Part shown: positions 709 through 38,755 of the stretch, piece after piece
Layout of the letters: every line of letters starts with the position of its first letter
Position numbering within the stretch: the stretch's first letter is position 1
NCBI GenBank assembly: GCA_041906785.1
Contig: JAYRIM010000021.1
Span: 17,881 to 81,880 of the forward strand
Direction of reading: 5' to 3'
Origin: Candidatus Levyibacteriota bacterium
GTDB taxonomy: Bacteria; Patescibacteriota; Microgenomatia; Levybacterales; UBA12049
DNA: 64,000 bases
Notes under the pieces: model-generated
What the model was told of the DNA's origin: nothing
Seen by the model: the letters and a program-made list of their open reading frames with translations, nothing else
Database searches by the model: none
Position numbers and translations under genes: made by a program

Positions 709-1563
709 TTATTTTATACTTTTTTTAAACATTATGAAGCTTGTGAGAATGATAAGTAGTAAGAGTATTATTCCTGCATAAAAACCGGCATTTTGTTGAG
801 ATGTTTTATTTCTAACTATATTAGAAGCATTTTCATCATTTCTCAGCGGGACTGCAGCATAAGAGTAATATCCTTTCGTATCTTTCACACGTAAGACGAC
901 GGTTGCAAAAAATTGATCCTTAAAAGTGTGGTTTACTACGGAGCCTTTTTCTGTTTTACCATCCCCAAAACTCCAAAGATATTCAGTAATAGAAGCATTT
1001 GGTGTTGATTTCGTTCCGTCAAGTGTGACTGGATAAGTAAATGATACATTCTGAATATCTGTCGTCTTCTTTACAACTTTTCCGTTAACAGAAATAAGCG
1101 CTTTCGGAAACGCTTCGTCTGTTTTCTGAGGAACAATAGTTATAAATACAGATTCTTCAACTTTAATTGTTTCCTGATTCTCATCTTTATACACAACAGT
1201 AGCGTATGTAATATACGAACCACTGTTCTTAAACTTGTGAATCGGTGCGGATTCTTTCGAATCTGTTCCATCTCCAAAATTCCAAAGTACTGATATATCG
1301 TCGAGTTTATCTTCTGGCACTAATGATTCCAGACTTTCAGTATTAATTTCAAATTGTATTGGAGTATTCACAAGTATTGGTGTTTTTACTTCTTCTGAAG
1401 GAAGAGGGAAGCCTACTGTGGAATCATCTTCAATCTCTATGGGAAAAGCTGAAGCAGGCTGTTTATTAATAAAAAAGAAAGGTTCATGAGCAGTTCCATG
1501 AGCGAGGCTTAAGCTTGGAAAAAATAGAATTACACTTATGATAAAAAAGATAATTTTTGCCAT
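709..1563 (-). CDS. secreted/membrane-anchored PKD-repeat protein
   Basis: N-terminal signal peptide, two WxFGDG(T/K) PKD-like motifs, C-terminal hydrophobic anchor. Confidence 0.55.
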   Translation of the reverse strand: MAKIIFFIISVILFFPSLSLAHGTAHEPFFFINKQPASAFPIEIEDDSTVGFPLPSEEVKTPILVNTPIQFEINTESLESLVPEDKLDDISVLWNFGDGTDSKESAPIHKFKNSGSYITYATVVYKDENQETIKVEESVFITIVPQKTDEAFPKALISVNGKVVKKTTDIQNVSFTYPVTLDGTKSTPNASITEYLWSFGDGKTEKGSVVNHTFKDQFFATVVLRVKDTKGYYSYAAVPLRNDENASNIVRNKTSQQNAGFYAGIILLLLIILTSFIMFKKSIK

Positions 1564-15228: not shown

Positions 15229-18135
15229 ATGGAAAAAATTATAATTCGTGGAGCTAGAGAACATAATCTTAAAAACGTTAATTTGGAAATTCCGAAAAAT
15301 AAACTAGTGGTTTTTACTGGTTTATCAGGAAGTGGAAAATCATCTCTCGCCTTTGACACGATTTATGCCGAAGGACAACGCCGGTATGTAGAGAGTTTAT
15401 CTTCATATGCTCGTCAGTTTTTAGGAACGATGAAAAAACCCGATGTGGACCTTATCGAAGGGTTATCTCCGGCAATTTCTATTGACCAGAAATCTACTTC
15501 ACATAATCCACGTTCGACAGTCGGGACAGTTACTGAAATTTATGATTATCTTCGTTTATTATTCGCCCGAGTAGGGCATCCTCATTGTCCAAAATGTGGA
15601 AGAGAAATAGCCCGACAGTCTAAAGAGCAGATTACAAATGCTATTGCGGATCTAACACAGCAGTATCCGCAACTTGGTAAAAAACCGCTACGCACATTAA
15701 TCATGGCACCACTTGTGAAAGATAGAAAAGGTGAATATACAGAGATGTTTACTAGTCTGCGGAAACGGGGATATTCAAAAGTCCGTATTGATGGGAGAGT
15801 ATATGGACTTGATGAAAAAATTGTACTGATTAAGACAAATAAACATAGTATTGATCTTATTATTGATAGCATTGTTATCAATAAAGAAACAGATCGGACT
15901 CGTTTAGCAACTGACGTAGAACAGGCACTGCAATTCGGTAATGGAGAAATGATCGTCGGCGTTATCCATGATGCTTCATTCGACATTCCTGATAAGCCTG
16001 AACAGATCGAAGACCATTTATATTCTGAAAAATTTGCATGTCCAGTAGATAATATTTCTATTTCCGAAGTTGAGCCACGTATTTTTTCTTTTAATACACC
16101 CCATGGAGCATGTCCTGAATGTTCTGGTCTTGGCCGTGTTTTAGATGTAGATAAGGATTTAGTTTTTAATAAAGATTTATCTATTAATGAAGGAGGAATC
16201 TTGCCTTTCTTCAATATGATGATGAATGATACATGGATGTCACGGACGTTTAAGACATTTTGTAAAGAAAATGGACTTCCTATGGATAAACGACTTGGAG
16301 CATTATCAGAAGAACAAATCAATTTATTGTTGTACGGAACAGGAGACCGACAATATTATGTAAAAGGAGAAAATAGATGGGGAATGTCTACAGCGATTCG
16401 TGAATCATTTAAAGGAATTTCTTATGAATTAAAACGCCGCTATTCAGAATCAGATTCAGAATATGTTAAAGCGCAGATCGAAAAGTTCATGCGATATGAA
16501 GTTTGCCATGTTTGTGAAGGTGCACGGTTAAAACCAGAAGCTCTTTCAGTTACGATAGAAAAAGAGTCTATTGTCGCAGTTTCAGAGATGTCTATCCGGG
16601 ATGCCTTAGCATTTATCGAATCACTACCGAGTAAAATGTCTGATAGAGAAAATGAAATAGGCCGCTTAATTCTCCGTGAAATTCGACAACGTCTCTCTTT
16701 CTTGGTAGATGTAGGACTCGATTATTTAACACTTGCAAGAAGTGCAGCAACTTTAGCAGGCGGAGAAGCACAACGTATTCGCTTGGCATCACAAATAGGG
16801 AGTGGTTTAACCGGTGTGCTGTATGTTCTCGATGAACCATCTATTGGTTTACACCAGCGTGATAATACGAAATTAATAGAAACGCTTAAAAAACTCCGTG
16901 GGTTAGGAAATACTGTACTTGTGGTCGAGCATGATGAAGATACTATGAAAGCAGCGGATTATATTTATGATTTCGGTCCTGGAGCTGGGGTACATGGAGG
17001 AAATATAGTCGCCAAGGGAACATATGAAGAACTTGGGAAAAATCCCGCATCTATCACTGGCGAGTATCTTTCTGGAAAGAAAAAAATACAGATCAGGAAA
17101 ACAGAAAAAGGTGTCGGAGTGGACATGGATGGAAAGGAAAGCTCAATTACTATTCTCGGAGCAACTGAACATAATTTAAAAAATATTGACGTAACTTTTC
17201 CGCTTCACAAACTAGTAGTTGTGACAGGCGTTTCTGGATCGGGTAAGTCAACATTAGTGAATGACATTTTTTATCATGCACTGATGCAAGCGAAAAATCC
17301 ATATCATCGTCAGAAACCAGGAGCACATAAAGCTATTGCAGGCCATGAGGAAATTAAGAATATTTTTCTTATAGACCAATCGCCGATTGGGAGAACTCCC
17401 CGAAGTAATCCTATTACGTATACTGGAGCATTTAACTATATTAGAGATTTGTTTGCGAGTACCAAGGAAGCGAAATTGCGTGGATATGGTCCCGGACGAT
17501 TTTCATTTAACGTTAAAGGTGGTCGATGTGAAGCATGTGAAGGTGAAGGGCAAATAAAAATCGAAATGCAGTTTCTACCGGATGTCTATGTTACATGTGA
17601 AGTTTGTGGCGGAAAACAATATAATAATGAAGCATTAGAAATATTGTTTAATAGTAAGAATATCGCAGATGTTCTTCAGATGACTGTAGCAGAAGCAACA
17701 GCGTTTTTTTCATTCGTTCCTGGTCTAGCTCATAAACTTCAAACACTGAATGATGTAGGTTTATCATATATTCGTCTCGGTCAACCCGCACCGACATTAT
17801 CTGGAGGAGAAGCCCAACGCGTGAAACTAGCTTCAGAGCTTTCAAAGAAAGGCAAAGGAGCTATTTATCTTCTCGATGAACCAACTACAGGTTTGCATTT
17901 CGCTGATTTAGAAAAATTACTACTGGTTTTCAGAAAGTTAGTTGATTTAGGAAATACAATTATCGTGATAGAACATAACTTGGATGTGATCAAAAATGCT
18001 GACTATATTATTGATTTAGGTCCAGAAGGTGGAGATAAAGGTGGAGAAATTGTCGCTCTAGGTACACCTGAAGAAGTCGCTAAGATTGACAGATCATACA
18101 CAGGACAATTCCTCAAGAAAGTCCTCAAATCCTGA
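15229..18135 (+). CDS. uvrA: excinuclease ABC subunit A
   Basis: 968 aa; N-terminal [13 protein letters not shown]...[23 protein letters not shown]; two ABC modules with Walker [11 protein letters not shown], signature LSGGEAQR twice; zinc-finger CxxC pairs. Confidence 0.95.
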
Positions 18136-30141: not shown

Positions 30142-31497
30142 ATGACTTTTGAAAGAAATAGCCAATCCTTAAGATTTAAAACTATACCATCCCGAACAAG
30201 TTTTATTCGGGATTATAATGTTACTCCAATTCGCGTGTCTTCTGTACATCCTTTTAGTGCAGAAAGGATGAAACAAACATATTTTCATTCGAAAGCAGGA
30301 CCTCGTTTTTCACCTGAACAGAATGTTTTTCTCAAAAGTTTTAGTAAAAATGTAGAAATATTTAGTAGCACCCCTAGAAAACATCAATCGAGTGAAATAC
30401 CACGAATCCGGAAACCAGATGTAAAGCCCTATAATCCTCTTCCTTCTATAGTTCATGAAGGTCCGGTTTCTCAAAGGGATTTGAATAGAAGCCGAGTTGA
30501 ATGGAAAAACGATAGTAGCGAAAAAAGAATAAAGAAAAGTGAAAATATTACAAGATTGAATGAAAAGCCACATTTATTCAGACGAGGTGATCAAATAGGC
30601 GCAAAACCTGAATCTACAAATGAAAGATTACGGGTGACACGTGAAACATTAAGAAAGGAAAAAAGTGATTATCGCCAAACACATATTGAGCAAACTGTTC
30701 AAGCAGTATCAGCAATTAGAACTGAACTCCGTACAATAAGACAAGAATATTCTCCTTTTAGTGCAAAAACAAACGAGCAAACAAGAAAATCTACTCCAAA
30801 AGATTCATTATATGCATTGATGAAATTAATGCAAAAAGCAAAAGCAGTAGAAATGATGCTTGAAGGAAAAAAATTAAGTAGAAAAGAAGAAAAATTATTT
30901 ATAAAAATGAGAAAAACGTTAAGAAAACAACAAGAAAAGATAATGAGATTCCGAAGAAAACTAAAAGAAAAATACCAACGTCTTCGAGAAAAAGCTCTAA
31001 TACGAAAAGAACAACAAAAAAGACCAAGTGGATTTGCAGTAGATTATTTGATGAATATGAATAGAGTTATGCTAGTGAAACAAGCATATGAGTTTGCGAA
31101 AGGTCACAGAACATTTTTAACTACAATTCTGAAGGGTAATACCATTACAGGAAATGAAATAGCAAAATATATATCTGTTAGATCAAAATCATTAAAAAGT
31201 AGAATACGGGAGCTTAAAGGAAGAGCACGCGATGGGGGACTGGTACTGTTTAAAAACTTTATTAAAAGTATTGGAAAAATTGAATCAGTTCAGCAAGCAG
31301 AAGAACATGCTAAATATGCAGCAAATCAATATCCTGCTGTTGTCCGAAGTAGATATGATGAAGGACTTGATGGATATGTGCGGAATGTCGTATTAATGGA
31401 TAGAAGAGATAAGGAAGAAGAACAAAAAAATCGAAAAGTTACTACGAATCACATCGTATTTCCTGCAAGAAATCATCAAACTGCTTTAGCTGCTTAA
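30142..31497 (+). CDS. highly basic K/R/E-rich 451-aa protein, hypothetical (coiled-coil, possible nucleic-acid binding)
   Basis: Long ORF with GGAGG RBS; composition-biased; no family recognised. Confidence 0.35.
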   Translation: MTFERNSQSLRFKTIPSRTSFIRDYNVTPIRVSSVHPFSAERMKQTYFHSKAGPRFSPEQNVFLKSFSKNVEIFSSTPRKHQSSEIPRIRKPDVKPYNPLPSIVHEGPVSQRDLNRSRVEWKNDSSEKRIKKSENITRLNEKPHLFRRGDQIGAKPESTNERLRVTRETLRKEKSDYRQTHIEQTVQAVSAIRTELRTIRQEYSPFSAKTNEQTRKSTPKDSLYALMKLMQKAKAVEMMLEGKKLSRKEEKLFIKMRKTLRKQQEKIMRFRRKLKEKYQRLREKALIRKEQQKRPSGFAVDYLMNMNRVMLVKQAYEFAKGHRTFLTTILKGNTITGNEIAKYISVRSKSLKSRIRELKGRARDGGLVLFKNFIKSIGKIESVQQAEEHAKYAANQYPAVVRSRYDEGLDGYVRNVVLMDRRDKEEEQKNRKVTTNHIVFPARNHQTALAA

Positions 31498-31498
31498 T

Positions 31499-33160
31499 TT
31501 AAGAAGCCTGTTTCTGATGAGGATTTTCTTCTATCAAATATTGTGCGGCATATGCTTCAGTTACATCGATTTTCTTATGGGGATTAAAAATAGAATCTGG
31601 GTCGAAGATTTCCTTTATTCTTTTAAATATACCATACATTTCTTTTCCAAACATTTTTTCTAAATAAGGGCTTCGTATTAAGCCATCATTATGTTCACCG
31701 GTGAGTGACCCACCGAATTTTAAAGTCAAATCAAAAACTTTTTTTCCCACAGAATATATCTTCGCTCGTTCCTTCGGATCTGATAAATCCATAAGCGGGA
31801 TAATATGGAAATTGCCATTTCCTATGTGTCCTGCAATTGTTGCTTGGATATGAGATTCATCAATTATTTTATATAACTCAGGGAGAAATTCCGGATAGAC
31901 TTCAGGTTTTACACATGTATCATCGATAAACGGCGCAGCGTATTTATTTTTTACGTGATGTCGTAATAAATTAAAACTTTCTCTGCGGATAGCCCAGTAT
32001 TTTTTTCGCTCTGATTCATTATGTGTGATTTTTAATTGTAGATTATCAAATTGAATCAGTTCATCAGATAAGGATTTAAGCTTCTGATGTATAGTATGAA
32101 TACTATCATCTTCAAATTCTACGAGTAGAACTAGTTTAGGCATACCTTTGGCGAGCACATATGCGTATTCAGGTAAAAATTGCTTAATTGTCTGAAAAGG
32201 AGAAGATTTTAAAATGGGTGAAAAGCCGGTAACATATCGAAGTGCTAATCGGAGTGTATAATGGTCAAATGTCTCAAAACTATCAGGATTATAGGAAAGA
32301 ACTTTTTTAACAATTTCAGGAAGATTATCTAAATTATCTAAATATGCGACAAGTAGACCGTGATGCTTCTTTTTCTGTACTACTTTCAATGTTGCTTCTG
32401 TAATCAACCCTAGTGTTCCTTGCGAACCAACAAACAATTTAGTCATATCAAAATGTTCTTTATCCCAAACTCGCCAGATTGTATATCCGGCAGAATTTTT
32501 TGAAACATCAGGTTTATATTTCTGAATCTTTTCATAATTCGATTCAACTAACTTAAATACCTCCCGATATACTTGTCCCTCAAAGGTTTTTAAATCCATT
32601 TTCTTTTCTAGTTCGCTTTTCGTAATTTTAGTGAAAGTATACACATTCCCATCTCTTAAGATAACTTTTAAAGAAGTCACGAAATCTTCAGCCTTACCAA
32701 ACTGTAACGATTTTTCGCCTCCTGCATTATTCGCCACTATTCCACCTACAGCACATAAACGTTTAGAGGACGGATAGGGGGGATATATAAGATCATGTTT
32801 TAGTAATTCATGCTCAAGATCTCTAAAATAAACTCCTGGTTCTACCACGGCTTCGTTGTGAGAAATCTTATGGATTTTATTAAACTTTTCAAATGCGATA
32901 AGAATAGACTCAGTAAGCGAACCCCCACTCATACAAGTACCTGCAGCACGGGCTGCTACTGATAAATGGGGATGTATGTGTTTATGTTCGTTTAAAAAAT
33001 GTATAATTTTTTGCAGATCTGCTACAGATTCCGGAAAAACAACTGCAAGCGGCTTCATTTGGAAAACACTCGCATCTCGTTTATATTTCTCACGAGTTTC
33101 ATCGTCAAGGAAAACCTTGTTAGGTAGTAATTGTTGGAGTTGGGCCAGAACGTTTATCAT
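31499..33160 (-). CDS. FAD-linked oxidase (GlcD / D-lactate dehydrogenase-like)
   Basis: FAD-binding PCMH motifs GTCMSGGS, VVEPGVYFRDL, CAVGGIVANNAGG; C-terminal FAD-oxidase_C. Start trimmed to Met 33160 because the track start lies inside the palindromic repeat. Confidence 0.65.
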   Translation of the reverse strand: MINVLAQLQQLLPNKVFLDDETREKYKRDASVFQMKPLAVVFPESVADLQKIIHFLNEHKHIHPHLSVAARAAGTCMSGGSLTESILIAFEKFNKIHKISHNEAVVEPGVYFRDLEHELLKHDLIYPPYPSSKRLCAVGGIVANNAGGEKSLQFGKAEDFVTSLKVILRDGNVYTFTKITKSELEKKMDLKTFEGQVYREVFKLVESNYEKIQKYKPDVSKNSAGYTIWRVWDKEHFDMTKLFVGSQGTLGLITEATLKVVQKKKHHGLLVAYLDNLDNLPEIVKKVLSYNPDSFETFDHYTLRLALRYVTGFSPILKSSPFQTIKQFLPEYAYVLAKGMPKLVLLVEFEDDSIHTIHQKLKSLSDELIQFDNLQLKITHNESERKKYWAIRRESFNLLRHHVKNKYAAPFIDDTCVKPEVYPEFLPELYKIIDESHIQATIAGHIGNGNFHIIPLMDLSDPKERAKIYSVGKKVFDLTLKFGGSLTGEHNDGLIRSPYLEKMFGKEMYGIFKRIKEIFDPDSIFNPHKKIDVTEAYAAQYLIEENPHQKQAS

Positions 33161-33248
33161 AAGGGACCTAAGAGCCAGAAGAGCCAGAGGTACCAAAGGC
33201 TTAAACATTTGTCTCCTTTGGCCCCTTTGTCTCTTTTGGAACCTCTAA
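33161..33248. repeat. composite palindromic intergenic repeat, copy 3
   Basis: AGAGCCAGAAGAGCCAGAGGTACCAAAGGC...CATTTGTCTCCTTTGGCCCCTTTGTCTCTTTTGGAACC. Confidence 0.65.
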
Positions 33249-34274
33249 CTATTTTTTCATTACACATTTCACTGCTTCTTTTATCGCAGGAATGTCCATA
33301 TGGTATTTAGCAAGTAATTCTGGTGTTTTACCGGATTCTGCAAATGTGTCTTGCAAACCTATAAATGCCATTTTCGTTGGTCGTTTTTTAGCAAGTATCT
33401 CTGCGATCATGCCACCCAATCCTCCAGTTACTTGGTGATCTTCGACAGTGACAACTGCTCCTGATTTATTCACAGCCTGAATAATCTGATCCTCCTTAAT
33501 AGGTTTGATAGTCGGAACGTTAAACACGTCTACAGAGATATGTTCCCCTTCAAGTTCTCTAGCTGCAAGCAACGCATGATAGGTCATGTAGCCCATCGAA
33601 AAAATAGTTGCAATTGGTGCATCTGATTTCCAAAAATGTTGAATACTTCCAAGATCAAAAGGGGTTTCTTCAGTAGTCATCACAGGAGTTTTATCCCGGG
33701 TAAATCGTATATACACAGGACCGTCGGTTTCAGCGGCTAGAATCGTTACCTTTTTACCCTGTAACGCATCAACAGGGACGAAAATACTCATTCCAGGCCA
33801 GGCACGGGTTGAAGAAATATCTTCAGTTGCTTGATGAGTAGCGCCATCAGGACCGGTCATTATTCCCGCATGATGCCCGGCTATTTTAACATTGGTTCGA
33901 TTATAAACAGCAGTAGTACGTATAGTTTCCCAGTTCTTACCTGGCGAAAAGGTAGCATATGAGGATATAAAAGCTGTTTTTCCAGCTGCAGCGAGTCCAG
34001 CGGCAACTGCTGCCATATTTTGTTCAGCAACACCGCATTCGAAGAATCTATCAGGATATTTTTTTTCAAAACCGTTAGCTTTCGTGGATTCTGAAAGATC
34101 AGCAGTTAACACAACAACATTTTGATTTTTTTCACCGAGAATTTCAAGCCCATCACCATACCCTTCACGAGTCGCCCGCTGCTCAACATCTTTATCGAAT
34201 AATTTCGAATTTAATTTAAGGTCAGGATTTAGCATATTATTTTTTACAACATTTTGTTTTTTCAAAAAAAACAT
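33249..34274 (-). CDS. transketolase, C-terminal (pyrimidine-binding + C-terminal domain) subunit
   Basis: ECGVAEQNMAAVAAGLAAAGKTAF, GPDGATHQATEDI motifs. Confidence 0.8.
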   Translation of the reverse strand: MFFLKKQNVVKNNMLNPDLKLNSKLFDKDVEQRATREGYGDGLEILGEKNQNVVVLTADLSESTKANGFEKKYPDRFFECGVAEQNMAAVAAGLAAAGKTAFISSYATFSPGKNWETIRTTAVYNRTNVKIAGHHAGIMTGPDGATHQATEDISSTRAWPGMSIFVPVDALQGKKVTILAAETDGPVYIRFTRDKTPVMTTEETPFDLGSIQHFWKSDAPIATIFSMGYMTYHALLAARELEGEHISVDVFNVPTIKPIKEDQIIQAVNKSGAVVTVEDHQVTGGLGGMIAEILAKKRPTKMAFIGLQDTFAESGKTPELLAKYHMDIPAIKEAVKCVMKK

Positions 34275-34836
34275 TGCAACAAGAAAAATTCCTGTGAATT
34301 CTAAAGTATTGATTAATTATGTTAATTTTATATCGGTTTAATCATTTCTAGTATTCTTTCTAGACAATAATAATTAGTAAGACCAGTTCTCTTTGTTGGT
34401 GAAATTAAATCACTTAAAAAAGATGGACAATCTGGAAAACGAATAGTTCGCACATTTTCATCTATAAATGGTTGAGATGCTAAAACAATAATAAAATCAA
34501 ATAACAGTATTTGTGTGGTTTTATTTTTCATTAAGTTACTTATATTTACTACGAGTTAAAATTTTCTTTTTAAAAATTATTTTTAATATAATAATATAAT
34601 ATAGAACAATCGTCCATGAGATAATAAGTGTGGGAAGAAGTAATGAAATTTTTCTATCAAAATTACAAGATCCTACGACAGCGCCTGATAACGGATAGCA
34701 TAGTGTTGGCCATAGAGTAATTGAAATTCCTAACAATTTGAGTAAGAAATCACTTAGTATAAATGTAAAAATTGCTAATACTATTGCAATACTTAATGCA
34801 ATTATATTATTATTCCTCTCTTTTCTTTTAGTAGAA

Positions 34837-37098
34837 TTATTCATGTTCGCTTTTTATCCTTCCTTGTAATGTACGTAATTCATTCAGTGCTTTTTTTGCT
34901 TCTTCTGGATTTGGCGGTTTTCCATGCCAGAGATAATTTTCTTCCATAAAATCCACACCTCTTCCAGGTATCGTATGGGCGATGATACATGTCGGTTTTT
35001 CAAAGATTGAATTCGCTTCGCGAACTGCATCGACAATAGCTCTATAGTTATGACCATCTATTTCAATTACGGACCAGTTAAATGCTTCATACTTCGCCCG
35101 AAGTGGTTCTAGAGGCATAATTTGTTCGGTAACTCCGTCTATCTGAATATTATTTCTATCAATAATAACAGTCAAATTATTAACTTTGTATTTTCCCGCA
35201 AACATAATTGCCTCCCATGTATTGCCTTCTTGATGTTCACCATCTGAAGTCAGACAATATACTTGGTATCTTTTTTTATCTAACTTTGCAGCTAATGCCA
35301 TACCTATTGCCTGTGATAGCCCTTCACCAAGCGGACCTGATGTATTCTCAACACCTGGCAATGCACCACGATGCGGATGTCCTTGTAATCTTGAATTTAT
35401 TTTTCGAAGCGTCTTTAACTCTTCTACTGGGAAAAAACCAGCTAAAGCCATTGTAACGTATTGGACGGGACAAATATGTCCGTTTGATAAGACTAATCTA
35501 TCTCTGTCTGGATCTGTCGGATTTTTCGGGTCAATATTAAGAATATGGAAATACATACATGCGAAAATATCTGCCATACCAAGTGGCCCAGCTGAATGAC
35601 CAGAACCTGCCTCTAAAAGTGTTTCAATGATCAATTGGCGTATTTGTGTGGCTTTATCTTCTAACTCTGCCACTTTATCATCGTGAAGTTCAGGAATAAC
35701 GAAATTTGAAGTTGTTTTTACTGAAATCTCTCCTGTTTTTATTTCAGTTACTTGAGAAGTTGTTTTTCCTTGCGGTTTCTCAATAGTTAATGAAGCGTCT
35801 TTCTTTCGTAATACTAGAATAATATCTGCGACATTGGAAGGAAGTTTCCCGGTCACTAAAGCATCGTTTGTTTTTTCAAGGAATTTCAGAGAATCATTAT
35901 TCTTTATATATTCTTCAGGGTTTAGTTGAGCTTTTTCAGCTTTCTCGACTGTCGTATTATCGACAATTCCACCTGCATTATGTGAATTATCCCAGCCGTC
36001 TGTACCGACTGAAGCTATTGTAACTGCGTCTCCGACGTAGGGGAGAGCAGCAAGGACGAGTTGTTGGTTTCTGCCTCCCTCTCCATTTCCTGTAACTTTT
36101 ACTGTTGTCTCTCCACCGGCGAGAAGAATCTGGCCAGGTTTTACTTGTTCTATTAAAAATTTACCCGCTTCGTTCGCATCTGCTTGATATTGATCAGAAT
36201 ATATGACAGCTTCATATCCTAATTCTGTAGCTTTATCTTTCATTGCGTTTAATGCAGTTATATTACTTAACATGACAACTGGGGAAACATGTTCAAAATA
36301 TTGGTCTTCTTTCGGGGTTTCCATAAAACATTCATTTAGGGACAACTCTGTAAGCTGAGGATACTTTTCTAAAAGCATTCTTACATCAGCGAGAGTAGAC
36401 GCGTCTTTTACTGTTGGCCCAGAAGCAATTGTCGATAAATCATTTCCTGGCACATCAGAATAAACAAGTGTTACTATCTCTGCGGGGTATAAAATTTTCG
36501 CGAGTCCTCCTCCTTTTACGGCTGACAAATGTTTTCGGATAACGTTCATTTCTTTTATATTTGCACCGCAGTGAAGAAGGGTTTTGTCTACTGCGATTTT
36601 TTGTTCAAATGTAATTCCTTTTGGAAGCTCAAACATAGCAGACCCACCACCACAAATAACTACCAGCACAAGATCCTTCTGGGTTAGTTGATATGACTCC
36701 ATTTTTTCGACTACTTGTTTCGTAAATTCGACATTTTCTGCAGATGGAAGTGGGTGAGTTCCTTTCGTAAAATTAAGCTTTGCAAACTGCTGTTCGATAA
36801 CGTCAATTACATACCCATCAGTTAACCGCTCCATTAATAATTGTTCTAGTAAATATGCGTTTTTAGCAGCTCCTTTACCGAATCCGATGAGGAATATTCT
36901 CTGATAATCAGCGAGATTGTATTGTTTATCTTGTACGATCAGTGTTTCACCCTCTAATGATATTGATTTCTTCAATACAGCTTCTGGCTGTAAAGCGGCA
37001 AATCCTGTATCGATAAGATTAAGAAGGATTGTTCTTTCTGGAGTTGTAGCAAGATCTTGGAAATTTCGTACCATCATAACTACTACCAGCTTACCCAA
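34837..37098 (-). CDS. fusion protein: glycerate 2-kinase (MOFRL family) N-terminal about 440 aa + transketolase N-terminal (thiamine-diphosphate-binding) subunit C-terminal about 290 aa
   Basis: Glycerate kinase GGETTVKVTGNGEGGRNQQ and VICGGGSAMFE motifs. Then HSAGPLGMADIF, LSNGH, GPLGEGLSQAIGMALA and LTSDGEHQEGNTWEA transketolase N-terminal motifs, in one uninterrupted 753-aa ORF. Confidence 0.75.
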   Translation of the reverse strand: MGKLVVVMMVRNFQDLATTPERTILLNLIDTGFAALQPEAVLKKSISLEGETLIVQDKQYNLADYQRIFLIGFGKGAAKNAYLLEQLLMERLTDGYVIDVIEQQFAKLNFTKGTHPLPSAENVEFTKQVVEKMESYQLTQKDLVLVVICGGGSAMFELPKGITFEQKIAVDKTLLHCGANIKEMNVIRKHLSAVKGGGLAKILYPAEIVTLVYSDVPGNDLSTIASGPTVKDASTLADVRMLLEKYPQLTELSLNECFMETPKEDQYFEHVSPVVMLSNITALNAMKDKATELGYEAVIYSDQYQADANEAGKFLIEQVKPGQILLAGGETTVKVTGNGEGGRNQQLVLAALPYVGDAVTIASVGTDGWDNSHNAGGIVDNTTVEKAEKAQLNPEEYIKNNDSLKFLEKTNDALVTGKLPSNVADIILVLRKKDASLTIEKPQGKTTSQVTEIKTGEISVKTTSNFVIPELHDDKVAELEDKATQIRQLIIETLLEAGSGHSAGPLGMADIFACMYFHILNIDPKNPTDPDRDRLVLSNGHICPVQYVTMALAGFFPVEELKTLRKINSRLQGHPHRGALPGVENTSGPLGEGLSQAIGMALAAKLDKKRYQVYCLTSDGEHQEGNTWEAIMFAGKYKVNNLTVIIDRNNIQIDGVTEQIMPLEPLRAKYEAFNWSVIEIDGHNYRAIVDAVREANSIFEKPTCIIAHTIPGRGVDFMEENYLWHGKPPNPEEAKKALNELRTLQGRIKSEHE

Positions 37099-37795: not shown

Positions 37796-37796
37796 G

Positions 37797-37868
37797 TGAG
37801 CCTGGGAGGATTTGAACCTCCAACCAATACCTTAAGAGGGTACTGCTCTACCGTTGAGCTACAGGCCC
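37797..37868 (-). tRNA. tRNA-Lys (anticodon CUU)
   Basis: Reverse complement GGGCCTGTAGCTCAACGGTAGAGCAGTACCCTCTTAAGGTATTGGTTGGAGGTTCAAATCCTCCCAGGCTCA; loop CTCTTAA. Confidence 0.8.
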
Positions 37869-37986: not shown

Positions 37987-38682
37987 GTGATACCGTCTGC
38001 ACAAAATATGGCTGAGCAAGTGAGACCATCTATATATGAAGACACTACGAATTTAAGGCCTGAGAGTGCGGCAGATGAAAGATTTCGTGCGTTACGAAAT
38101 CGCTTTCGCTATTTAACCACAATGTTCACCACTGGTGAGCCTAATTTTCGACCTCAGGAACGATCACAAGCATTTGATTGGCATCTTTATGTCGATAACA
38201 AACCTACATTTTTACGTATGTATGTTAATACTTTCGGATATGCATTTAAAGAACCTGGTGCAAGTTTCGTAATTAACGAAAGGTCTCGTGTACACATACC
38301 AGCAGGGAAACCTTTTCAGCCCACAGAGAGATCTAGTGATTTAGATGATGAAATGTTAAAAATTTGGGAGGTTTTAGATACTATCGCACAATTGGAGAAT
38401 CAAGTAGGAAGAGGAATAGAACCAGCACACAGAGAAGTTTTTGAAGGCAGAGGAGAATTCTTTTATCCCCATTTTGTGGTTGATGATCATTTATCTAGAG
38501 AGGGAATAGCTCTTTACTCCAATTCAGGTATAACTATTCCTTTACACGAAATAGGTTTCGGATCTGCTAAAGAAACAAATATAGTTGTAGGGTTATTTTT
38601 TAAACCAGTAACCTATGTTGAACATGCAAGAACAAAAGATTCTATACGATCACATGGTCAAGTATATCCTCTTATCGTTTAG
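37987..38682 (+). CDS. hypothetical soluble protein bracketed by two tRNA genes
   Basis: 231-aa ORF; stop codon directly abuts tRNA-Arg. Confidence 0.35.
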   Translation: MIPSAQNMAEQVRPSIYEDTTNLRPESAADERFRALRNRFRYLTTMFTTGEPNFRPQERSQAFDWHLYVDNKPTFLRMYVNTFGYAFKEPGASFVINERSRVHIPAGKPFQPTERSSDLDDEMLKIWEVLDTIAQLENQVGRGIEPAHREVFEGRGEFFYPHFVVDDHLSREGIALYSNSGITIPLHEIGFGSAKETNIVVGLFFKPVTYVEHARTKDSIRSHGQVYPLIV

Positions 38683-38755
38683 TACGCCCGAGAGGAGTCG
38701 AACCTCCAACCCTGTGGTCCGAAGCCACATGCTCTATCCATTAAGCTACGGGCGC
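38683..38755 (-). tRNA. tRNA-Arg (anticodon UCG)
   Basis: Reverse complement GCGCCCGTAGCTTAATGGATAGAGCATGTGGCTTCGGACCACAGGGTTGGAGGTTCGACTCCTCTCGGGCGTA; loop CTTCGGA. Confidence 0.75.

Follow-up and report, generated by a model that had tools for sequence, protein, structure and literature searches.

The DNA analysed here, called the window throughout, is a stretch of 64,000 nucleotides (positions 17,881 to 81,880 of contig JAYRIM010000021.1, assembly GCA_041906785.1) from a Candidatus Levyibacteriota bacterium. On its reverse strand, a single gene joins a glycerate 2-kinase (GK) of the class II, MOFRL family to the N-terminal half of a split transketolase (TKN), the subunit that binds the diphosphate of thiamine diphosphate (ThDP) and is here called the PP subunit. 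The other transketolase half (TKC) and a FAD-linked oxidase are encoded by separate genes on the same strand (Table 1). The open reading frame (ORF) of the fusion is free of stop codons over 34837..37098 (-) and spans 753 amino acids (aa) if counted from the TTG at 37098. Since the homologues, as well as an identical 745-aa database protein (P0001), begin at ATG 37074, one of an ATG pair at 37077/37074, the gene is best placed at 34837..37074. In the 753-aa numbering, Pfam profiles matched DUF4147 (PF13660) at residues 26-247 (E 3.7e-64) and MOFRL (PF05161) at residues 324-425 (E 8.2e-29), both above the gathering score, and Transketolase_N at residues 483-737 (E 2.7e-59). These three matches far exceed chance.

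An earlier note on this DNA had proposed that one ORF unites a MOFRL-type glycerate 2-kinase and the ThDP-binding half of transketolase, and the Pfam and PDB matches agree with it. Every motif that it named (GGETTVKVTGNGEGGRNQ, HSAGPLG, GPLGEG and TSDGEHQEGNTWEA) is found in the fusion ORF. Its boundaries need correction: the kinase part comprises about 423 residues instead of about 440, and the linker, which had been put at 35600-35700, lies roughly 100 nt away at 35704..35805, the former interval being part of the transketolase domain. A C-terminal transketolase half is indeed separately encoded nearby, as the note held, with Transket_pyr and Transketolase_C domains and matching PDB entries; its gene is neither upstream of the fusion nor adjacent to it, since it lies downstream (3') on the same strand, beyond 601 bp that hold two small ORFs.

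Table 1. Coordinates of the fusion gene, its parts and neighbouring features in the window
Feature	Position	Strand	Length or extent	Evidence or remark
Fusion gene (glycerate 2-kinase + linker + transketolase N-terminal/PP subunit)	34837..37074	(-)	745 aa	
Glycerate 2-kinase module (class II, MOFRL family)	35806..37074	(-)	residues 1-423	Pfam, PDB, invariant columns, pLDDT
DUF4147	36358..37023	(-)		Pfam
MOFRL	35824..36129	(-)		Pfam
Inter-domain linker (KKDASLTIEKPQGKTTSQVTEIKTGEISVKTTSN)	35704..35805	(-)	34 residues	alignment, column identity, AlphaFold
Transketolase PP (ThDP diphosphate-binding) subunit	34840..35703	(-)	residues 458-745	Pfam, PDB 6YAK
Transketolase Pyr + C-terminal subunit (TKC)	33249..34235	(-)	328 aa from ATG 34235	Pfam, PDB, tblastn
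FAD-linked oxidase (FAD_binding_4 + FAD-oxidase_C), GlcD / D-lactate / D-2-hydroxyglutarate dehydrogenase superfamily	31499..33208	(-)		Pfam; fourth cluster member
Small ORF, two hydrophobic segments	34536..34844	(-)	102 aa	ATG overlaps fusion stop (ATGAATAA)
Small ORF, no family	34328..34531	(-)	67 aa	within 601-bp spacer
Lys/Arg/Glu-rich ORF, no Pfam/NCBIfam match	30142..31497	(+)	451 aa	convergent on oxidase gene, 1-nt gap
tRNA-Lys(CTT)	37796..37868	(-)		
GTG-start ORF, no family match	37987..38682	(+)	231 aa	between tRNA-Lys and tRNA-Arg
tRNA-Arg(TCG)	38682..38755	(-)		

The kinase module aligned end to end both with TM1585 of Thermotoga (PDB 2B8N; E 1.5e-61, residues 35-421) and with PH0495 of Pyrococcus (PDB 1X3L; E 3.5e-55, residues 14-422). 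It carries the family motifs GFGKGA, HPLP, CGGGS, RKHLSAVKGG, SDVPGN, IASGP, GGETTV, GGRNQ, TDGWD and SNVAD. Across an alignment of 18 fused proteins (see below), the stretches GKG, HP.P, GGGS, RKHLS.VKGG, SDV.G, IASGP, GGET and GGRNQ are invariant, and mean column identity over the kinase part is 0.73. AlphaFold modelled this module with a predicted local distance difference test score (pLDDT) mostly >90. Glycerate 2-kinase is the only activity found in characterised MOFRL enzymes (PMC2063504). Furthermore, among the representatives of 50%-identity clusters, relatives with about 40% identity over the kinase part include an 827-aa fusion with enolase, a 1092-aa fusion with enolase plus pyruvate kinase, and a 690-aa fusion with a pyruvate kinase barrel. 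Fusion to 2-phosphoglycerate-using enzymes gives indirect support to the idea that the wider kinase family makes 2-phosphoglycerate, and the module in the window most likely converts D-glycerate to this product.

Transketolase domains are partitioned between two genes, with Transketolase_N found only in the fusion and Transket_pyr plus Transketolase_C in 33249..34235. The fusion's transketolase half matched chain A of PDB 6YAK, the N component of the split transketolase of Carboxydothermus (E 3.4e-81, residues 465-736), and TKC matched the C component of the same enzyme (6YAJ/6YAK; E 1.3e-76). The TKC reading frame is open to 34274, which is 13 codons beyond the start seen in relatives (MLNPDLKLN at 34235); because the tblastn alignment to a relative begins at that point, ATG 34235 is probably the true start. 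Scored against NF004559, the fusion (305.2) and TKC (284.2) each fall below the cut-off of 488, and together they reach 589, a simple sum that gives only a rough guide. In the transketolase half, mean column identity is 0.86 across the 18 fused proteins. The ThDP/metal motif (GDG-X25-30-N) is kept as SDGE...DRNN, with D611, G612, E613 and N641 invariant; the first glycine of GDG is serine in the window and glycine in four members of the clade of fused proteins described below. H493, H533, H566 and H717 are likewise invariant and align with histidines of ChTK-N, and TKC retains GVAEQN and DGATHQ. Residue roles for H66, H100, G114 and H473 (E. coli numbering) are given in published work (PMC7661550). 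The transketolase core is confidently modelled by AlphaFold, and the low-confidence loops (558-565, 576-579 and 704-745) would be consistent with regions that become ordered upon cofactor binding and subunit contact. A split transketolase is active as an alpha2beta2 assembly (PMC7661550), and by analogy we infer that the fusion's transketolase half depends on TKC as its partner, in a predicted assembly of the same kind. A search of the window with related proteins showed no second copy of either the kinase or a transketolase gene.

Between these two conserved modules, the linker is polar and unconserved: it ranges from 7 to 33 aa among homologues, and its mean column identity is 0.30 across the 18 fused proteins. 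In the AlphaFold model (built on 106 sequences; predicted template modelling score 0.60), residues 428-457 have a pLDDT <50, and the model suggests two confident rigid bodies joined by a flexible, disordered tether. The junction coincides with an old gene boundary. In an unfused relative (L005), the kinase ends in ...SNVSDLIIVYKY and a stop codon precisely where the window's linker starts, and the separate TKN begins with MDLELREERLLKLEE, which aligns with PELHDDKVAELED in the fusion. The former start methionine of TKN is kept as an internal methionine (FMIPELH) in 8 of the 18 fused proteins. At the corresponding position the window has valine (GTT), its transketolase part beginning FVIPELHDDK, so that this half can be produced only within the fusion. 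The length and sequence of the linker and junction differ in almost every one of the 18 proteins and the frame is kept throughout, a pattern that no sequencing error could create.

As the earlier note had recommended, databases were searched for this architecture, covering 5.8 billion proteins with the best 120 matches listed. Eighteen fused clusters at 90% identity (36 sequences, drawn from NCBI assemblies, JGI, ENA and Logan) share the same three-domain architecture, with 99% query coverage and 56-100% identity. Logan's independent assembly of run SRR26835457 contains a contig that encodes an identical protein. The other 102 of the best 120 matches are stand-alone kinases of about 425 aa, which the source databases assign to Levybacteria, Curtissbacteria, Saccharimonadales or 'Patescibacteria group', and the stand-alone TKN proteins nearest to the fusion's (73-80% identity) are likewise of Patescibacteria origin. 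Judged by these best matches, the window belongs to a Patescibacteria (CPR) genome, most likely of the Microgenomates group. The fusion is accordingly uncommon, in keeping with the earlier note's description of it as unusual: apart from 15 fused proteins of one clade and three isolated ones, every listed match is a separate kinase gene. A scan of GTDB species genomes yielded one relative only, at 81% identity. No fused protein was found among the 50%-identity representatives, where the top match was a 428-aa kinase. Such a search cannot count architectures, because the fusions are hidden in clusters of unfused kinase or TKN proteins, and domain-architecture surveys that are based on 50%-identity clustering would overlook them. 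None of the 18 fused clusters bears an nr or UniRef source tag in the search table, and two had been labelled 'glycerate-2-kinase/transketolase N-terminal domain/subunit' by the JGI pipeline. Thus the fusion is already labelled by automated annotation, while no paper describing it, or a kinase-transketolase cluster, was found in the literature searched.

The genes that are merged in the window are neighbours in its unfused relatives. In all five of those sampled (L005, L009, L010, L012 and L013, from Levybacteria, Curtissbacteria and others), GK, TKN and TKC are separate genes in the same order and on the same strand, with GK upstream. Four of them have GK and TKN +44, -1, +1 and -4 nt apart, and in L010 the distance is about 1.1 kb. 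A FAD-linked oxidase directly follows TKC in four of the five. Other genes of central carbon metabolism also occur at these loci: in L010, RpiB overlaps the kinase start and a PfkB kinase is also present, and L005 is flanked by glyceraldehyde-3-phosphate dehydrogenase (GAPDH) and phosphoglycerate kinase (PGK). The five other fused loci that we examined are organised similarly. TKC is the next gene in each, after a spacer of 1-112 nt, and the oxidase comes immediately after TKC or one gene further on in three; L008 lacks it, as does the cluster of the unfused L012, and the contig of L011 ends inside TKC. In the window, the oxidase best matches YdiJ (D-2-hydroxyglutarate dehydrogenase), GlcD and D-lactate dehydrogenase, partially and each far below the NCBIfam cut-off. 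A published explanation for the association of this kinase with transketolase and a FAD-dependent D-2-hydroxyacid dehydrogenase was not found in the literature searched. Because most of the unfused relatives sampled carry the same genes nearly touching, and because the junction sits at the old gene boundary, the simplest account of the fusion is read-through of the stop codon and spacer between operon neighbours. Two unfused kinases, P0025 (461 aa) and P0088 (456 aa), both on short contigs, carry unconserved C-terminal tails of about 30-35 residues beyond the usual kinase end; these may have arisen by reading through into the spacer without reaching TKN, which would make them possible intermediates toward fusion.

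Each part was analysed in a neighbour-joining tree of 96 taxa, based on 424 columns for the kinase and 286 columns for the transketolase. Fifteen fused proteins, including that of the window, formed a clade with bootstrap support of 100/100 (kinase) and 92/100 (transketolase, with P0289 counted as fused). P0289, at 81% the closest apparent unfused TKN, was rejected as such: the gene is fused but truncated, since its 2.1-kb contig ends within it, and the frame stays open through linker-like sequence as far as the contig start. All 18 fused proteins were recovered as one group in 0/100 bootstraps. The remaining three (P0016, P0017 and P0018) joined the clade of 15 in 0-4/100 in either tree, each stood beside different unfused proteins in both trees, and they grouped together in 0/100 in the kinase tree, the sole tree in which this was tested. 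Fusion has probably been recurrent, with up to four independent events, a number that is plausible because the junctions span few nucleotides.

We consider it likely that the gene encodes a bifunctional chain, a kinase joined to the PP subunit of a split transketolase that pairs with TKC as alpha2beta2, born by merger of operon neighbours and working without channelling. The N-terminal module of about 423 residues would convert ATP and D-glycerate to 2-phosphoglycerate, and the C-terminal module of about 288 residues would pair with the product of 33249..34235, with ThDP held at the subunit interfaces as in the Carboxydothermus enzyme. Through the 34-residue disordered polar linker, one kinase would be tethered to the N-terminus of each alpha subunit. 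The chain arose when the kinase stop codon was lost and a short spacer was read through in frame, within an operon of GK, TKN, TKC and a FAD-dependent D-2-hydroxyacid dehydrogenase. As a consequence, two enzymes that feed lower glycolysis would be made at a fixed 1:1 ratio and kept in one place, with no direct channelling between them. The earlier note had suggested that the fusion physically couples glycerate phosphorylation to pentose-phosphate carbon shuffling. This holds only in the trivial sense that both activities would reside on one polypeptide. Since glycerate and 2-phosphoglycerate are not substrates of transketolase, and since the linker is short, unconserved and predicted to be disordered, co-expression and co-localisation are to be expected rather than channelling. 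In bacteria of the candidate phyla radiation (CPR), the non-oxidative pentose-phosphate route is thought to bypass a missing phosphofructokinase and to feed lower glycolysis (PMC7304191, PMC7143001), and both activities of the fusion would deliver carbon to this same lower-glycolytic trunk.

Several observations weigh against this interpretation. The kinase module differs from TM1585 and PH0495 in two otherwise conserved stretches, with TDGWDNS for TDGTDGP and TGKLPSNV for TGPTGTNV; inspected alignments show the same kind of variants in related Patescibacteria kinases, fused or unfused. It also falls below the NCBIfam equivalog cut-offs for glycerate 2-kinase (NF040791, 261.5 vs 670; NF041176, 197.8 vs 550), and because these scores are so far below, the identity of its substrate is extrapolated; both models represent archaeal lineages, and the assignment is accordingly made at the level of family, not exact function. 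In biochemical terms, the glycerate kinase and transketolase roles of Patescibacteria members of both families are themselves predicted. The recurrence of the fusion rests on distance trees and on three outliers that each come from a single contig. Finally, the kinase keeps company with pentose-phosphate genes (with transketolase in every relative sampled), an association that a pure accident of adjacency would leave unexplained.

Two other readings take this association as their starting point. One sees in the cluster a glycerate/hydroxypyruvate node, in which the oxidase would make hydroxypyruvate from D-glycerate, transketolase would use it as an irreversible two-carbon donor with release of CO2, and the kinase would take the remaining glycerate. 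In most relatives the FAD oxidase has stayed in one cluster with the kinase and both transketolase halves, the oxidase falls in the D-2-hydroxyacid dehydrogenase superfamily and D-glycerate is a D-2-hydroxyacid, and split transketolase takes hydroxypyruvate as a donor in vitro (PMC7661550). If true, the four-gene cluster would be an undescribed glycerate/hydroxypyruvate-transketolase module of Patescibacteria in which transketolase builds pentose or ketose phosphates from trioses and the tethered kinase divides glycerate between this route and lower glycolysis, and genome-reduced bacteria that lack phosphofructokinase would gain a novel route for making or balancing sugar phosphates. We nevertheless consider this unlikely, as every NCBIfam score of the oxidase is far below its cut-off, the clusters of L008 and L012 do without an oxidase, transketolase use of hydroxypyruvate is known chiefly in vitro or in biocatalysis, kinase and oxidase would compete for one substrate, and no paper proposing a hydroxypyruvate module was found in the literature searched. 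The other reading has the MOFRL module phosphorylate a different substrate, one connected with pentose metabolism; its invariable position next to transketolase (and RpiB/PfkB) would then be accounted for. The conserved linkage with pentose-phosphate genes, the sub-threshold equivalog scores and the lineage-specific changes in two conserved stretches all fit such a kinase. It is made improbable by the characterised MOFRL enzymes, all of which are glycerate 2-kinases (PMC2063504), by the family motifs, most of which are intact, and by the proteins of about 40% identity that are fused to enolase, or to enolase and pyruvate kinase, as consumers of 2-phosphoglycerate.

It may also be asked whether the chain exists, or functions, as a whole. 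A hidden frameshift or lost stop could have joined two genes in this assembly only, given that separate adjacent genes are the rule in relatives and that each of the three outlying fused proteins is found on one contig only. Such a sequencing or assembly artefact, which we give almost no credence, is refuted for the window: 15 distinct fused proteins form a clade whose members are 66-83% identical to the window protein, an identical ORF occurs in a second assembly, and GTT has replaced the former TKN start codon, so that no separate TKN is possible. The suspicion of a frameshift in the earlier note is excluded by the 18 fused homologues and the independent assembly. That one module is an inactive relic, or serves only as a scaffold or regulatory domain, is very improbable. 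Any fusion protein could in principle lose activity in one of its halves, and nothing positive speaks for such a loss here; against it, conservation is strong in both modules, whose family motifs are retained, the ThDP/metal motif and histidines persist in the transketolase half, and the window showed no second copy of either gene. A bifunctional kinase and transketolase subunit remains the reading that we favour.

Compared to known systems, the fusion combines familiar parts. As in the split transketolase of Carboxydothermus hydrogenoformans (6YAK/6YAJ; PMC7661550), PP is on one polypeptide and Pyr with the C-terminal domain on another, the long PP-Pyr linker of one-piece transketolases is missing, and the ThDP/metal motif and histidines are conserved. 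In contrast to that enzyme, the window's PP subunit is extended N-terminally by a 34-residue linker preceded by a glycerate kinase of 423 residues, and its subunit genes are 601 bp apart with small ORFs in between. The kinase shares the DUF4147 and MOFRL build and most motifs with the class II glycerate 2-kinases TM1585 (2B8N), PH0495 (1X3L) and Thermoproteus tenax GarK (PMC2063504). These are stand-alone proteins of about 400-440 aa, whereas the window's module is below the archaeal equivalog cut-offs, has two motif variants, and has transketolase as its genomic partner, not serine, tartrate or Entner-Doudoroff genes. Relative to the unfused GK-TKN-TKC(-FAD oxidase) operon, genes, order and orientation are the same (kinase 52-57% identical, TKN 73-80%), and the difference is the stop codon and a junction of -4 to +44 nt (about 1.1 kb in L010) that separate kinase and TKN there. 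In the PGK-TIM (phosphoglycerate kinase-triosephosphate isomerase) fusion protein of Thermotoga maritima, neighbouring central-carbon enzymes are also made as one chain. Like PGK-TIM and the fusions of ribulose-phosphate 3-epimerase (RPE) with TKN, of GK with enolase and of GK with enolase and pyruvate kinase (PK), the window's protein places two central-carbon enzymes from adjacent genes on one chain; those fusions unite consecutive or near-consecutive steps, whereas glycerate kinase and transketolase share no intermediate. As TKN is also found fused to ribulose-phosphate 3-epimerase, N-terminal additions to the split TKN subunit seem to be tolerated. Further multi-enzyme fusions of the same families, some possibly artefacts, are present among the 50% representatives (P0194, P0230, P0237, P0176, P0250, P0167 and P0158), namely GK-enolase, GK-enolase-pyruvate kinase, GK-pyruvate kinase barrel, ribulose-phosphate 3-epimerase-TKN, NUDIX-GK and ICMT/PEMT-GK.

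The fusion reveals no new enzyme family or mechanism: it is a split transketolase whose alpha subunit would carry a glycerate kinase, and a modest evolutionary curiosity. It does indicate that glycerate kinase and transketolase have been linked closely enough to merge in one lineage of genome-reduced uncultivated bacteria, probably more than once, and it lends independent support to a conserved, unexplained operon of glycerate kinase, split transketolase and FAD-dependent D-2-hydroxyacid dehydrogenase. It also raises the possibility that glycerate supplies carbon to organisms whose central metabolism is understood only in part. Annotators may take it as a warning, with the fusion hidden under unfused 50% representatives and each transketolase half scoring below full-length cut-offs.

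Elsewhere at the locus, the low-GC spacer of 601 bp between fusion and TKC is specific to this genome, the relative with 81% identity having one of 112 bp. The 102-aa ORF within it is absent from most relatives. L011 has a 96-aa ORF (909..1199) at the same position, which also overlaps by 8 nt and is similarly hydrophobic at its ends; the two were considered as homologues and rejected, as they share no significant sequence similarity. Just upstream of the TKC ORF lies a promoter-like sequence (TTAACA-16-TAGAAT, 34325->34298), which is a consensus match only; the promoter/terminator scan gave 25 promoter-like sites vs 25.4 expected. RpiB, PfkB, GAPDH and PGK were not found when the window was searched with proteins of the related loci, and by Pfam 20 other ORFs of the window are housekeeping genes only. 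A gene of similar size and position to the Lys/Arg/Glu-rich ORF that converges on the oxidase gene occurs in the 81% relative (L002; 436 aa, no Pfam match). The 231-aa ORF between the two tRNA genes may be spurious, because its last base coincides with tRNA-Arg. The record of the 81% relative (L002/L007; GCA_964512695.1, contig CAZEJU010000011.1) is titled 'uncultured Gammaproteobacteria bacterium', a label that is probably wrong, since both the genes that it holds and all close homologues are Patescibacteria-like.

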